This document shows, in pieces, positions 9,434 through 49,930 of a stretch of 64,000 bases of DNA. The translations under genes and the position numbers were made by a program. The notes under the pieces were generated by a model. The model was not told where the DNA came from. It ran no database searches and worked only from the letters and a program-made list of their open reading frames with translations. Every line of letters starts with the position of its first letter. Positions within the stretch are counted from its first letter, which is position 1. Source of the DNA: Escherichia phage LQ5; sequence record OR677401; one strand, given 5' to 3'.

Positions 9434-9712
9434 ATGGACCTAAATTCAAAGATTTTAATTCTAGCGTTCGCTGTGGCTATTTCTTATATTGTTCTTTCGC
9501 CTATCATGGATGATGTGGCTTACAAAAGAGAGATAGAGGTTGTAGCAGCGACGTATAATGCTAATAATAAAGAATGTCCTAATAAAAATGGGATGGATTT
9601 AATTAAAGCGCATTATATGCTTTCCATTACCTCGCCTATACAGAGGAATTGGGTTGAATATAATTTTAACGACGTGTTCTATTCTTATTGTCGTAAGCTT
9701 AAAAAGCTATAA
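9434..9712 (+). CDS. hypothetical membrane protein
   Basis: N-terminal hydrophobic helix ILILAFAVAISYIVLSPI. Confidence 0.6.
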   Translation: MDLNSKILILAFAVAISYIVLSPIMDDVAYKREIEVVAATYNANNKECPNKNGMDLIKAHYMLSITSPIQRNWVEYNFNDVFYSYCRKLKKL

Positions 9713-17623: not shown

Positions 17624-18634
17624 ATGACTCGTACTGAATACATCAATGCCTTTACTACGTATATCACTACCAACACCCCTCCGTTAACCCCATACGAGGT
17701 AATAGTTTCTAATATCAATAAATGGGTCGACCAAATTGATGATGCATTATCGCGCTGTTTCAAAGCTGAAATCGAAAAGATTGCAGGCCGTTTGTGCATT
17801 CATGATATCATTAAAACATTTAAAGGTTCTCGACTGCTTTCGCGCCTGGTCAATAAGGACATCCTTTCTGAGTTCGGTAAAGAGAAATACCCAGGTTCCA
17901 ACCGTGTTGTTAACTACAAATGGTTTGGTGATACCATAAAAGGTTATATCAAAATTAAAGGTATGGACCCTAATAGTTTATTTCCGCAACGTTGGGTTAG
18001 CGAATTCAAGGCTAACTCTGCATTAATTCTCAAAGCGGCCTCTAAAACTATAGTTTCCGGTGATTGTCGTACTATTCACCCGATGGCTAATTGCATGATT
18101 AAAACAAATAGTTATAAAGGAAAAGCTATTATTTCTGTTATTTGGTCACCTAATAGGAAACCTAAAGATGATGCGGAAGTTGTAAAGTATCAAGATATTG
18201 CTTACGATACCTTGAATACTATCGAACAAGCTTTAGCTCTGATGGATACCGTAGAGAAATATGAGACCCAAGAAGTTAAACACCACTTAGGCTGGAAAGG
18301 ATATGAAGTCTTAGTAACAGTCCGTGAAATCAAATGTACCGTTCCAAAAACTGATGCTGAAATTTACCAAGAAAAATGTGAGGAAATTGTGAACACTGAT
18401 AAAGAGCCTGCTACATTAGAAGATTTGATTAACGACTTGAACAGCCCTATCATGGCCCCTACACCAATTACTAAATCCAAGTTACCAGAAGTCGTTGCCT
18501 TGGAAAAAGCGTATAAAGACGCCCTTGCTATCAACAAAAAACTGACTGGCCAATATACCGCCGCCAAGAAACTTTGGGAAGAGTCTACCAATCGTTTAGA
18601 CCGTCTTGAACAGGCTCTGGAGCTGCTGAAATGA
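17624..18634 (+). CDS. hypothetical protein
   Basis: ORF 336 aa; GAGGAGAA before ATG. Confidence 0.7.
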   Translation: MTRTEYINAFTTYITTNTPPLTPYEVIVSNINKWVDQIDDALSRCFKAEIEKIAGRLCIHDIIKTFKGSRLLSRLVNKDILSEFGKEKYPGSNRVVNYKWFGDTIKGYIKIKGMDPNSLFPQRWVSEFKANSALILKAASKTIVSGDCRTIHPMANCMIKTNSYKGKAIISVIWSPNRKPKDDAEVVKYQDIAYDTLNTIEQALALMDTVEKYETQEVKHHLGWKGYEVLVTVREIKCTVPKTDAEIYQEKCEEIVNTDKEPATLEDLINDLNSPIMAPTPITKSKLPEVVALEKAYKDALAINKKLTGQYTAAKKLWEESTNRLDRLEQALELLK

Positions 18635-46708: not shown

Positions 46709-46874
46709 GATTTCTGTATTCGAATTATTCGAAGAGTATGAAATCGTATCAAAGGACCAAGAAGCTATCCATATTATTGCCGGTGATGGTGTGACTTGGA
46801 TTATTCCACTTTACCACGAAGATACGTACGAAGTCACTGATGCAAATGGTGATAAAGCTATTTTCGTAATATAA
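46683..46874 (+). CDS. hypothetical protein
   Basis: ATG 46683 with GGGAACAA upstream; overlaps previous ORF. Confidence 0.4.
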   Translation: MSAMCTGSKISVFELFEEYEIVSKDQEAIHIIAGDGVTWIIPLYHEDTYEVTDANGDKAIFVI

Positions 46875-46877
46875 ATA
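46870..46877 (+). promoter_or_regulatory. late promoter TATAAATA
   Basis: exact TATAAATA 13 nt upstream of AGGAG and micro-ORF 46891. Confidence 0.5.
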
Positions 46878-46890
46878 AGGCCAGGAGCCT

Positions 46891-47052
46891 ATGAAATCTT
46901 TTAAAGAAGTTATGAACGAAGATATGGTCGCAGGCGATGCAGGTGGAAACCCATCTAATATTGCCTCCGGAACTACCTCAGGCGCAGTCGTCAACAAAGG
47001 GCCTGAACAAATCCCATCTAAAAAGCGTAAAGAAAAATCCGAAAACGAATGA
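46891..47052 (+). CDS. micro-protein (53 aa)
   Basis: AGGAGCC then ATG; below ORF-track cut-off. Confidence 0.4.
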   Translation: MKSFKEVMNEDMVAGDAGGNPSNIASGTTSGAVVNKGPEQIPSKKRKEKSENE

Positions 47053-47090: not shown

Positions 47091-48119
47091 ATGTCATATG
47101 TCGATAGAGAATTTGCTGTACGTGCCTTGAATTACCAACCTAAATTCAGACAAGTAACCGGTAGTGATTTTAAATTAAACTGCCGTTGTCGTGTATGTGG
47201 CGACTCCCTAAAAGATGAAAACAAAGCTCGTTTTTGGGCCTATCCGGCCAATGACGGCTCCGTAATGCTGCACTGTTTTAACTGTGACTATTCAGCAGGA
47301 ATTAAGAAGTATCTATACGAATATGAGCCTGATTTATATCGAGAATATATTCTTGAGAAACATAAAGAGCAATCGTTCGGGAGACAAGCTGCACCTAAGG
47401 TGGAGATATCAGAAAAGATTAAAGCCAAGATGCCTGTCATCGAAAAGCTTAATTTCTGTGAACGTCTGGATAGAATGCCAAAGGACCATCCTATTATCAA
47501 ATATGTAACACTACGTTGCATTCCTGAAAACAAATGGAATCGCTTATGGTTTACTAAAGAATGGCCGGCATTGGTGAACTCTGTCAATCCAGGGACCTAT
47601 TCTAAAGAAATGCCTGAGCCTCGTTTGGTTATTCCAATTTTCAATAAGAATAAACAAATTGAAAGTTTTCAGGGTCGAGCCTTACGTAAAGATGCTCCAC
47701 AAAAATATATTACAATAAAAGCTCATGACCAAGCTACAAAAATATATGGAATGGATACAGTTGACGAACGTCAGTTGGTGTGGGTAATGGAAGGCCCTAT
47801 TGACTCTTTGTTTGTTCCGAATGCAATAGCAATTACTGGCGGGTCGTTGGACTTGGCTATGGTTCCATGTAAAGAAACTCGTGCCTGGGTAATGGACAAT
47901 GAACCCCGCCATCCTGACACAATTAAGCGTATGCAACGATTAGTTGATGCTGGCGAAAGGGTTCTATTCTGGGACAAGGCTCCATGGCCTTCTAAAGATA
48001 TAAATGATATGATTATGAAAGATAAAGCTGATATAAATGATGTACTGGCATATATGAAAGCTAATATAGCCCAAGGTTTAATGGCAAAAATGAGACTTTC
48101 AAAATATTCTAAAATTTAG
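47091..48119 (+). CDS. 61: DNA primase gp61
   Basis: zinc ribbon CRCRVCGD ... HCFNCDY; collinear with T4 gp61. Confidence 0.95.
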   Translation: MSYVDREFAVRALNYQPKFRQVTGSDFKLNCRCRVCGDSLKDENKARFWAYPANDGSVMLHCFNCDYSAGIKKYLYEYEPDLYREYILEKHKEQSFGRQAAPKVEISEKIKAKMPVIEKLNFCERLDRMPKDHPIIKYVTLRCIPENKWNRLWFTKEWPALVNSVNPGTYSKEMPEPRLVIPIFNKNKQIESFQGRALRKDAPQKYITIKAHDQATKIYGMDTVDERQLVWVMEGPIDSLFVPNAIAITGGSLDLAMVPCKETRAWVMDNEPRHPDTIKRMQRLVDAGERVLFWDKAPWPSKDINDMIMKDKADINDVLAYMKANIAQGLMAKMRLSKYSKI

Positions 48120-48316
48120 GCAGGAACTCCGCTAAAGAATCCAATTATGCTTAATACGTGTTCCATTGTAACCGCTGGTAAAATTATCCCTTGGCTAGCG
48201 GCTACAGGGACTACTAGAAGATTCCAAAGGAATACGTCTAGCGCAAGAAAACCTAACATCATTTTCTTGTCTTTCTTTTCGGCCAATTTCCAGATTTGGT
48301 AAAAAATACTGCCCAT
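48116..48316 (-). CDS. small membrane protein on the minus strand
   Basis: strong RBS caggaggataacATG on minus strand; two hydrophobic helices; convergent with gene 61, divergent from the HNH gene. Confidence 0.55.
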   Translation of the reverse strand: MGSIFYQIWKLAEKKDKKMMLGFLALDVFLWNLLVVPVAASQGIILPAVTMEHVLSIIGFFSGVPA

Positions 48317-48378
48317 GTTATCCTCCTGTTAAATTAATATTTATAACTTGCTTTACAAATTAATGATACAATTATCCC

Positions 48379-49035
48379 ATGAATTACGAAAAAATATACC
48401 AGGAATTAATATCTAAAGGAAAATTAAGAGGTTCTAAGCGGTCTTTATCATATTATACGGAAGAACACCATGTTATACCTAGATGTATGAATGGTTCTGA
48501 TGATAAAAACAATTTAGTTGCTTTATTGCCAAGAGAACACTTTGTAGCTCATAGGCTTTTAACAAAAATATATCCCGAAGTAAAAGGTCTACATTATGCT
48601 GTTAATTTAATGAGATATAATAAAGGAGTTAAATTAACTAGTAGAACTATAGCCACGTTAAGAGAAAATAACGCTAAAGCATTTTCAGGAAAAAATAACC
48701 CGATGTTTGGTAAACCTTCCTGGATTAGAGGGATGAAAACTCCTGAAGAAACTAAAGCCAAAATGCGCCTGGCTCATAAAGATAAAATTATATCTGATGA
48801 AGCCAAGGCCAATATGAGTAAAGCTAGAAAAGGAAGATTTAGTGGTAAAGATTCCCCTAGATATGGTTTACCGAATCCTAGGCGTGGAGAAATATGGAAT
48901 AGTTACGATATGCTTTACGAATTATGGGTTTACAATAATAAACCTAAACGCACCAAATTTAATAAAATAGCTGTTGATAATGGATATCCTGATATTTGTT
49001 ATCGACGAATGATAGAAAACTTTAATAGGAAATAA
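48379..49035 (+). CDS. HNH homing endonuclease with C-terminal DNA-binding repeats
   Basis: EEHHVIPRCMNGSDDKNNLVALLPREHFVAHRL HNH core; repeats NNPMFGK, TPEETKAKM, SDEAKANMSKARKG; AT-rich. Confidence 0.8.
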   Translation: MNYEKIYQELISKGKLRGSKRSLSYYTEEHHVIPRCMNGSDDKNNLVALLPREHFVAHRLLTKIYPEVKGLHYAVNLMRYNKGVKLTSRTIATLRENNAKAFSGKNNPMFGKPSWIRGMKTPEETKAKMRLAHKDKIISDEAKANMSKARKGRFSGKDSPRYGLPNPRRGEIWNSYDMLYELWVYNNKPKRTKFNKIAVDNGYPDICYRRMIENFNRK

Positions 49036-49039
49036 TATA

Positions 49040-49561
49040 ATGGCATTTTTTAACGAATGTAGTGGTTTGATTTCTGGTGTTGATAAAGCTGAGGAAGCTT
49101 ATTTTAATGCTCTGATTCATGAAGATAAAGACCCTCTGCAGGTTATGCTTGATATGCAGAAATCATTACAGGTCCGTTTGGCTACTGAAAAATCTGAATT
49201 TAACTCTAACCCCGATGAACTGGCTACTGCAGGTCAAGTTGTCGATTGGCTTCGCAACCAGAAAGATTATATTGATGACGAATTCCGTGAACTGTTGACT
49301 TCTCTTGGTGGCATGAGCAATGGCGAAAAAGATGCATCTGCAGTATGGAAGCCTTGGAAAGCTCAACATGCTGAACGTCGTGAAACCCTGATTAACGATT
49401 TGTCTCCTGAAGACCAGCTCGAAATTAAATTCGAAATGATTGATATTCTGCACTTTGTTCTGAATATGTTCCAAGGTCTTGGACTGACTGCTGAAGAAAT
49501 CTTTAAACTGTATTACCTGAAAAATGCCGAGAACTTTGCTCGCCAGGACCGAGGTTATTAA
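49040..49561 (+). CDS. 56: dCTPase/dUTPase gp56 (MazG-like)
   Basis: collinear with T4 gp56 as recalled (DPLQVMLDMQ ... DDEFRELLTSLG ... EIFKLYYLKNAENFARQDRGY). Confidence 0.9.
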   Translation: MAFFNECSGLISGVDKAEEAYFNALIHEDKDPLQVMLDMQKSLQVRLATEKSEFNSNPDELATAGQVVDWLRNQKDYIDDEFRELLTSLGGMSNGEKDASAVWKPWKAQHAERRETLINDLSPEDQLEIKFEMIDILHFVLNMFQGLGLTAEEIFKLYYLKNAENFARQDRGY

Positions 49562-49563
49562 GT

Positions 49564-49571
49564 TATAAATA
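49564..49571 (+). promoter_or_regulatory. late promoter TATAAATA upstream of soc
   Basis: exact TATAAATA 32 nt before soc ATG. Confidence 0.7.
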
Positions 49572-49602
49572 CACCTGTAATTAAACAACAAAGGAGTTAA
49601 TT

Positions 49603-49836
49603 ATGGGTGGTTTCGTTAATATTAAAACCTTTACGCATCCGGCTGGTGAAGGTAAAGAAGTTAAAGGTGTTGAAGTATCTGTCCCGTTTGAAATCTATTC
49701 AAACGAGCATCGTATTGCGAATGCACACTATCAGACATTTCCTTCTGAAAAGGCGGCATACACTACTGTAGTAACTGATGCAGCCGATTGGCGAACTAAG
49801 AACGCGGCGATGTTTACGCCTACCCCAGTAGTTTAA
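49603..49836 (+). CDS. soc: small outer capsid protein Soc
   Basis: VNIKTF ... AHYQTFPSEKAAY matches T4 Soc as recalled. Confidence 0.9.
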   Translation: MGGFVNIKTFTHPAGEGKEVKGVEVSVPFEIYSNEHRIANAHYQTFPSEKAAYTTVVTDAADWRTKNAAMFTPTPVV

Positions 49837-49840
49837 TTAT

Positions 49841-49868
49841 AAGGAACCTTCGGGTTCCTTTTTTGGTT
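49841..49868 (+). terminator. rho-independent terminator
   Basis: ggaacc-ttcg-ggttcc then T-tract. Confidence 0.85.
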
Positions 49869-49930
49869 TTAAGGGTTTACTTTCTAAGAAGGTTATGTTA
49901 AGATGGTCTTATCTTATAGAGGAGAATGCT

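Follow-up and report, generated by a model that had tools for sequence, protein, structure and literature searches.

The interval between gene 61 and gene 56 of Escherichia phage LQ5 very probably holds a mobile homing endonuclease cassette on one strand and, on the other, a resident late gene for a small membrane protein. The endonuclease and the small ORF are two unrelated things side by side. The window analyzed here, i.e. the whole 64,000-nt stretch of sequence record OR677401, was placed by megablast in the JS98/IME08 group of Dhakavirus, a T4-like coliphage, with vB_EcoM-E33 as the best match (98%). The ORF listing bore out the predicted order of primase gene, 66-aa minus-strand ORF, HNH gene, and dCTPase gene (Table 1). 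The stop codons of gene 61 and the small ORF, which are convergent, overlapped by 4 nt, and the starts of the small ORF and the homing endonuclease (HE) gene were divergent with a 62-nt spacer between them. The GC content of the HE gene was 0.29-0.36 versus approximately 0.40 in its flanks, in agreement with the AT-rich gene of the original prediction. Genes 61 and 56 had also been taken to be adjacent in T4, which was incorrect, in that dam and an unannotated homolog of the small ORF separate them there.

Table 1. Positions of the features discussed, in coordinates of the window
Feature	Position	Strand	Evidence or remark
Gene 61, DNA primase	47091-48119	+	phrog_47 DNA primase, 9.8e-96; annotated 58/61 in IME08, JS98, and QL01
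Small ORF, 66 aa	48116-48316	-	phrog_2024, 5.8e-28
Shine-Dalgarno AGGAGG of the small ORF	48322-48327	-	5 nt before ATG; read from the sequence
T4-type late promoter TATAAATA (predicted)	48338-48345	-	21 nt upstream of the small-ORF ATG
MotA-dependent middle-promoter-like element	48349-48372	+	TGCTTTA 48349-48355, 11 nt, TACAAT 48367-48372
HNH homing endonuclease (HE), 218 aa	48379-49035	+	phrog_655, NUMOD3, HNH motif
Putative co-conversion tract, 5' two-thirds of gene 56	49036-49400	+	mismatch profile against QL01/IME08
Gene 56, dCTPase/dUTPase	49040-49561	+	phrog_173 (nucleoside triphosphate pyrophosphohydrolase), 1.2e-44; Pfam dUTPase_2
soc	49603-49836	+	Soc family PF16855
Lysozyme gene e	2594-3082		approximately 45 kb from the small ORF

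The HE protein matched phrog_655, 'homing endonuclease', at 2e-54, and consisted of an HNH domain, NUMOD3 repeats, and a putative DNA-binding C-terminal tail. The catalytic motif was present as HHVIPRC...NNLV...EHFVAH (pattern HHVIP..N..H), with the Pfam HNH score at 18.4 bits, under the gathering cutoff of 21.4. NUMOD3 scored 28.6 bits against a cutoff of 20.4, and two to three repeats were recognizable by eye (SGKNNPMFGK, TPEETKAKM, and SGKDSPRYGL), so the C-terminal DNA-binding repeats predicted earlier were confirmed. By tblastn, the protein was at least 99% identical in 8 records, and identity was 76-78% in Jiaodavirus KEN22 and in Tequatrovirus G50 with its relatives. The protein shared only 35% identity with T4 MobD (4e-31) and, across 78% of its length, 41% identity with the HE adjoining nrdA in T6. 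A sequence search of the PDB returned marginal HNH matches only, to McrA and IscB. The gene was under purifying selection, with dN/dS of 0.09-0.14 in comparison with G50 and KEN22. IME08 carries the same HE under the name 'mobE' with 100% amino acid identity, all 6 nucleotide differences between the two genes being synonymous, and leaves the minus-strand ORF unannotated.

These features identify the HE, as judged from its domains and motifs, as a free-standing homing endonuclease of the Mob type. It shares with T4 MobA-MobE, and especially with MobD and MobE, an N-terminal HNH domain of the form MNY...HH(V/I)IP...N...H followed by NUMOD3 repeats. It is also Mob-like in being a promoter-less, AT-rich cassette that lies between two essential genes and relies on host transcription, in its presence/absence polymorphism, and in the co-converted DNA at its flank. 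Orthology to T4 MobE was considered and rejected, since the window HE is found between genes 61 and 56, directly between the small ORF and gene 56, unlike MobE, whose site is between nrdA and nrdB and whose target is nrdB, and since its identity to the nrdA-neighboring HE of T6 is at the level given above. The name 'mobE' in IME08 is therefore a family-level label. With that annotation the HE was already known, and it is nothing new in kind.

The distribution of the HE among related phages supported its mobility. The whole 2.7-kb query including the HE was present in 9 records, and the HE was carried by IME08, E33, and VR5. It was absent from QL01, JS98, WG01, AnYang, and other Dhakaviruses that were 94-98% identical over the 2.7-kb segment, and QL01, JS98, WG01, and others lacked exactly the HE segment. 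G50 and KEN22 shared the insertion site, with small ORF, HE, and gene 56 in that order. Compared to the HE-less QL01, the window had no mismatches in 47300-48345, 47 mismatches within 49036-49400, and again none in 49400-49899, and compared to the HE-carrying IME08 it had no mismatches in 49000-49300. Because the mismatches to QL01 were confined to 49036-49400 and IME08 was identical there, the HE and the first approximately 360 bp of gene 56 are best read as having entered a QL01-like backbone together, as one block. The mismatch block in gene 56 has the signature of co-conversion expected from intronless homing, a concept said to come from the SegF paper. The recognition or cleavage site of the HE-less allele would probably lie within 49036-49400 or at the gene-56 ribosome-binding site. 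The original prediction of a mobile HNH cassette between genes 61 and 56 was thus upheld by the polymorphism, by the site shared with G50 and KEN22, and by the tract in gene 56, and the HE, whose co-conversion tract has sharp boundaries, offers a clean natural case of intronless homing.

We further compared the HE junctions with the undisturbed leader of gene 56. HE-less phages have the middle promoter, a leader containing ATGAATTGA, and then GAAAGGAAAAAT(A)ATG of gene 56. In G50 and KEN22, the HE was inserted directly after GAAAGGA, which becomes the HE Shine-Dalgarno sequence with a GTG start, and the last HE codons (AGAAAGGAAAAATAA) re-create the Shine-Dalgarno sequence of gene 56. The window HE carried a 19-bp deletion between two TGAATT repeats. 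Its ATG is the ATG of the leader, has no Shine-Dalgarno sequence, and follows the -10 element of the MotA-type middle promoter by 6 nt; the final HE codons (AATAGGAAATAA) supply the ribosome-binding site of gene 56. The Shine-Dalgarno sequence of gene 56 was therefore duplicated or re-created at the HE insertions. The element at 48349-48372 matches the middle-promoter consensus (a/t)3TGCTTtA-N11-13-TAtaAT quoted in PMC1524935. Among the HE-less counterparts before gene 56, QL01 and JS98 had the diverged CGCTTTA and Bp7 the full TGCTTTA, and T4 has P(M)16.53 at this place. The predicted middle promoter would serve both the HE and gene 56, with a predicted start at or beside the HE ATG. Since this ATG is without a Shine-Dalgarno sequence, we infer that HE translation is low and possibly leaderless. 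RNA folding at the HE start gave no sequestering hairpin (z = +1.4). The seg and mob genes of T4 are likewise promoter-less cassettes on host promoters, with weak or absent translation-initiation regions (PMC2988022).

A mechanism can be proposed from this arrangement. The HE is inserted into the 5' untranslated leader of gene 56, between the middle promoter and the ribosome-binding site. There it would ride on the resident promoter, its last codons would rebuild the ribosome-binding site of gene 56, and its own translation would probably be poor, as usual for such genes. During mixed infection, the HE would cut within or close to the 5' end of gene 56 on genomes of the HE-less type, and repair would copy the HE gene and the adjacent gene-56 sequence from the HE-carrying genome. 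The closest parallel in host gene is SegF of T4, in that gene 56, listed as the SegF target in a review table (PMC2988022), is targeted or converted in both cases from an adjacent intergenic position. However, SegF is a GIY-YIG enzyme whereas the window HE is of the HNH type, and SegF is encoded between gene 56 and soc, on the opposite flank of gene 56. AnYang, VR26, and T4 carry segF on that other side.

The small ORF did not follow the HE. Its product was 100% identical in the HE-less QL01, WG01, LHE83, and FB and 98.5% identical in JS98, and the window and QL01 had zero nucleotide differences in the ORF. It was also found in AnYang, C2-3, and T4, which are without this HE. The match to phrog_2024, a family of small T4-like phage proteins without annotated function, ran end to end (residues 1-64 of 65 profile positions), as did those of the VR26, Kosakonia, and T4 versions, with E values from 1e-15 to 1e-31 when the window ORF is included. 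By tblastn, homologs were present in 121 phage records, and the T4-type version in 693 further records, mostly named 'hypothetical protein'; neither set of records was de-duplicated. In at least 8 genera (Dhaka-, Tequatro-, Gapriver-, Marfa-, Jiaoda-, Kanagawa-, Mosuguk-, and Gelderlandvirus) the ORF was syntenic and convergent with gene 61, and the overlap of the two stop codons was usual in Marfavirus, Gaprivervirus, Kanagawavirus, Mosugukvirus, Gelderlandvirus, and Jiaodavirus.

The slot beside the small ORF was variable. It was empty in QL01 and C2-3, and held this HE in the window, G50, and KEN22, dam in T4, dam and an extra ORF in MX01, and a different HE in Kosakonia 305. Bp7 and RZ carry another Mob-like HE, which is located between gene 61 and the small ORF. 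VR26 has both types of small ORF in tandem as paralogs, and RZ retains the T4-type version, with the other type reduced to a 31-aa remnant.

In the original prediction, the HNH cassette was suggested to carry the membrane ORF as its cargo, e.g. as an exclusion or anti-defense factor, so that the ORF would move with the HE. The ORF does adjoin the HE divergently, with 62 nt between the starts, and the first base of its late promoter (T for A at -13) falls within the imported DNA. However, the imported DNA begins only at the promoter, so that the ORF itself is outside the tract, and the co-conversion tract runs away from it. Moreover, phages without the HNH gene, from QL01, JS98, AnYang, C2-3, and T4 to hundreds more, also conserve the ORF, and it stays at the end of gene 61 whether dam, other HEs, or nothing lies alongside. 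Such conservation had been named in the original prediction itself as grounds for rejecting the idea. The cargo reading is refuted by these comparative data, and the small ORF is treated below as a resident gene.

We further investigated if the small ORF is a coding gene and when it would be expressed. Between the window and Bp7, 33.7 changes over 41 synonymous sites (saturated) were counted versus 14.3 over 157 nonsynonymous sites, and the proteins were 89% identical. In other pairs dN/dS was 0.07-0.2 (0.07-0.18 in the unsaturated pairs), indicating strong purifying selection. The strong AGGAGG ribosome-binding site noted in the original prediction was present 5 nt before the ATG and was conserved at all homologous loci. 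On the minus strand, TATAAATA at 48345-48338 is followed by TTAATTTAAC-AGGAGG-ATAAC-ATG, which would place the predicted transcription start near 48332 and give a leader of approximately 16 nt. With both strands counted, the 64 kb contained only 5 TATAAATA sites; three of the others precede e, 61.1, and soc, and one is at 9708. In 17 of 18 independently promoted copies of the small ORF, TATAAATA or NATAAATA was found 20-30 nt before the ATG. The promoter in JS98 and QL01 was the common A(-13) variant and that in T4 had G(-13); the T4 (GATAAATA) and SEA1 (TATTAAATA) promoters were non-consensus at one position. The motif was thus conserved across genera. Descriptions of the late-promoter consensus, which occupies -13 to -6 near the gene start, and of its frequent A(-13) variant are given in PMC2988020 and PMC1524935. 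Similarly, the T4 late genes soc and e are located in the early region and have TATAAATA near a strong Shine-Dalgarno sequence, but both are on the early strand, whereas the small ORF is on the opposite strand.

Strand usage in the region was consistent with this timing. In the near-identical phage QL01, approximately 130 CDS are annotated in 1-65 kb, all on one strand except the small ORF. Minus-strand ORFs in the window were counted when they had at least 50 aa and less than half of their length under a plus-strand ORF, and the 7 others had no PHROG match. The small ORF thus appears to be the sole opposite-strand gene in approximately 65 kb, which supports the earlier claim that it is the only minus-strand gene. 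[quoted passage not shown] The small ORF is therefore a predicted late gene; it would be transcribed by gp55-RNA polymerase from TATAAATA, convergently with gene 61.

A scan for sigma-70 promoters and terminators gave chance-level results, with no terminator after the small ORF. Because of this, late transcripts probably run antisense into gene 61. The conserved feature at the locus could then be RNA-based and not a protein, either as a late antisense transcript over the gene 61 3' end or as a roadblock to transcription between genes 61 and 56; the late promoter aims into gene 61 with no terminator between, and at some T4 sites both strands are known to be transcribed, each at a different time (PMC2988020). 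The saturation of synonymous sites with the protein 89% identical, the low dN/dS, the Shine-Dalgarno sequence conserved across the loci, the length (mostly 60-69 aa) and motif conserved in the 15 clusters formed at 50% identity, and the paralogs that VR26 has in tandem are all against this, which makes an RNA or roadblock function highly unlikely as the conserved feature. The small ORF is thus taken to act through its protein, and an antisense effect could exist in addition.

The predicted structure of the protein was examined. AlphaFold2 gave a model with pLDDT 76 and helices at residues 2-11, 14-41 (long), and 51-62 (short). Hydropathy showed one clear transmembrane segment at 20-38 (KD19 = 2.05), and a second, C-terminal hydrophobic segment was marginal, under the usual transmembrane threshold. 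The predicted two-helix membrane protein accordingly held in the two modeled helices (14-41 and 51-62) and in one clear transmembrane segment; for the second segment the support was marginal, and the topology could be either single-pass or a hairpin. The window protein has a basic N-terminus, a transmembrane segment at about 19-41, and a conserved WN..(V)P.A...G..LP.VT.E motif. The family as a whole likewise has a basic N-terminus and a hydrophobic helix, followed by WN(F/L/Y)xx(x)P(V/I/L)A...G..(L/I)P.(V/I)(T/P).(E/D). Together, the model and the hydropathy suggest that this small protein resides in the inner membrane, with its basic N-terminus in the cytoplasm, a single transmembrane helix, and a short conserved hydrophobic C-terminal segment.

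Relatives of this protein were confined to a narrow family. A profile search of 1.84 billion representative proteins retrieved only 15 clusters, all of 33-69 aa and most of 60-69; none of these relatives was longer or carried an annotation from which a function could be guessed. When the most distant of the profile matches (P0073) was used as a tblastn query, the phage collection gave no match. For three family members, scans against Pfam and NCBIfam with E values up to 10 gave only sub-threshold chance matches (SspI, YwcE, and NADH dehydrogenase C1 subunit), and Foldseek of the AlphaFold2 model against BFVD returned family members plus non-significant noise only.

A holin-like or pinholin-like lysis protein would agree with the small size, predicted late timing, and membrane embedding. 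One UniRef entry (P0057) names a T4-type homolog 'Holin', and Foldseek gave a weak, non-significant likeness to phage holins (E above 1). However, the name is an uncurated label, and the Pfam and NCBIfam scans gave no holin match even at E values up to 10. The charge is N-terminal, and the last 25 residues contain no K/R and one D/E, which is the reverse of typical holins. In addition, the ORF is outside a lysis cassette, with primase and dCTPase genes as neighbors and the lysozyme gene approximately 45 kb away. In T4, this role is already filled by holin T, together with the antiholins RI and RIII. A holin function is therefore improbable, and the protein was not filed as a holin on account of its reversed charge distribution and the lack of a lysis cassette. 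As a tentative suggestion, the small inner-membrane protein may have an envelope-directed late function, e.g. modulation of lysis or lysis timing, or of membrane integrity, by contacts within the membrane, although the neighborhood contains no lysis gene. Such contacts may be made by the conserved Asn, Pro, and acidic residues, a detail proposed with low confidence. More tentatively still, it may be a conserved late inner-membrane factor of T-even-type phages with a distinct envelope role. That role could be to tune lysis or lysis inhibition as a new component, to exclude superinfecting phages at late times, or to protect against a membrane-acting host defense.

The small ORF is also present in the reference phage of the group. 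The T4 homolog is a 66-aa ORF at 17738-17938 (+) of NC_000866, in a 309-bp 'gap' that separates dam from gene 61, and matched phrog_2024 at 4.6e-31. It is unannotated in NC_000866, in AF158101, and in the 1984 record X01416, and a literature search on its expression or annotation (Ribo-seq, transcription start sites, and unannotated small proteins) found nothing relevant. Hundreds of T4-like genomes thus retain, where the primase gene ends, a strongly constrained small ORF that the T4 reference annotation misses, and through this ORF an envelope or lysis-phase function so far missing for a model phage could come to light.

A homolog of the small gene, the 66-aa minus-strand ORF that encodes a phrog_2024 membrane protein convergent with the primase gene 61, was found in T4. 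There it lay between dam and gene 61, with GGAGG as its Shine-Dalgarno (SD) sequence and GATAAATA upstream. Many other Tequatrovirus records did annotate this 66-aa ORF, either as a hypothetical protein or as a putative membrane protein. Tandem paralogs were present in the Gaprivervirus VR26, and in RZ the Dhaka-type gene was cut down to a 31-aa remnant, adjoining a different Mob-like HNH gene that was inserted after gene 61.

Small-gene homologs in T4, VR26 and RZ, and consensus late promoters in the window (L-numbers, comparison loci with local coordinates)
Feature	Coordinates	Strand	Remark
66-aa phrog_2024 homolog, T4	NC_000866 17738-17938 (= L004 3239-3439)	+	no CDS in T4 reference genome
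Tandem paralogs, VR26	L006 1295-1492 and 1501-1701		one T4-type, one Dhaka-type
Small-gene copies, RZ	L012 1549-1746 and 1834-1929		
Consensus late promoter	window 46870-46877	early	directly before 61.1 (46891-47052)
Consensus late promoter	window 49564-49571	early	directly before soc (49603-49836)

Selfish elements have a hotspot in the 61-56-soc segment (L014 1708-2463; L010 523-1173; L011 2677-3132; L003 4392-5087). Bp7 and RZ carried a different HNH homing endonuclease (HE) gene after gene 61, Kosakonia phage 305 carried an HE gene before gene 56 (dCTPase), PEi20 had a mobE-like gene before gene 61, and segF followed gene 56 in AnYang, VR26, and T4. In Klebsiella phage Marfa (L005 1-1472), two CDS were located between the small ORF and a full gene-56 homolog, one a short 93-aa 'nucleoside triphosphate pyrophosphohydrolase' and the other a 252-aa hypothetical protein. 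This pair may represent a gene 56 split or partly duplicated around an insertion.

We compared the start of the window HE with the related HE genes of G50 and KEN22, and found that 19 bp between two TGAATT repeats were missing from the window (48373-48385 versus L016 2170-2210). This loss removed the SD and the GTG start, and a leader mini-ORF contributes the ATG to which the HE is now fused. The gene-56 leader of HE-less phages retained ATGAATTGA, the Bp7 version of which was a 7-codon mini-ORF with a TAATG end.

The T4-type late-promoter motif TATAAATA occurred at only 5 sites in 64 kb on both strands, about half of the ~11 expected from a rough base-composition estimate. At the lysozyme gene e (2594-3082), TATAAATA was followed by a hairpin with a 10-bp stem (ACCUCC...GGAGGU) that covered the SD of e, motif and hairpin together lying within window 2564-2610. 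The e locus had the classic T4 arrangement, in which translation is possible from the late transcript only.
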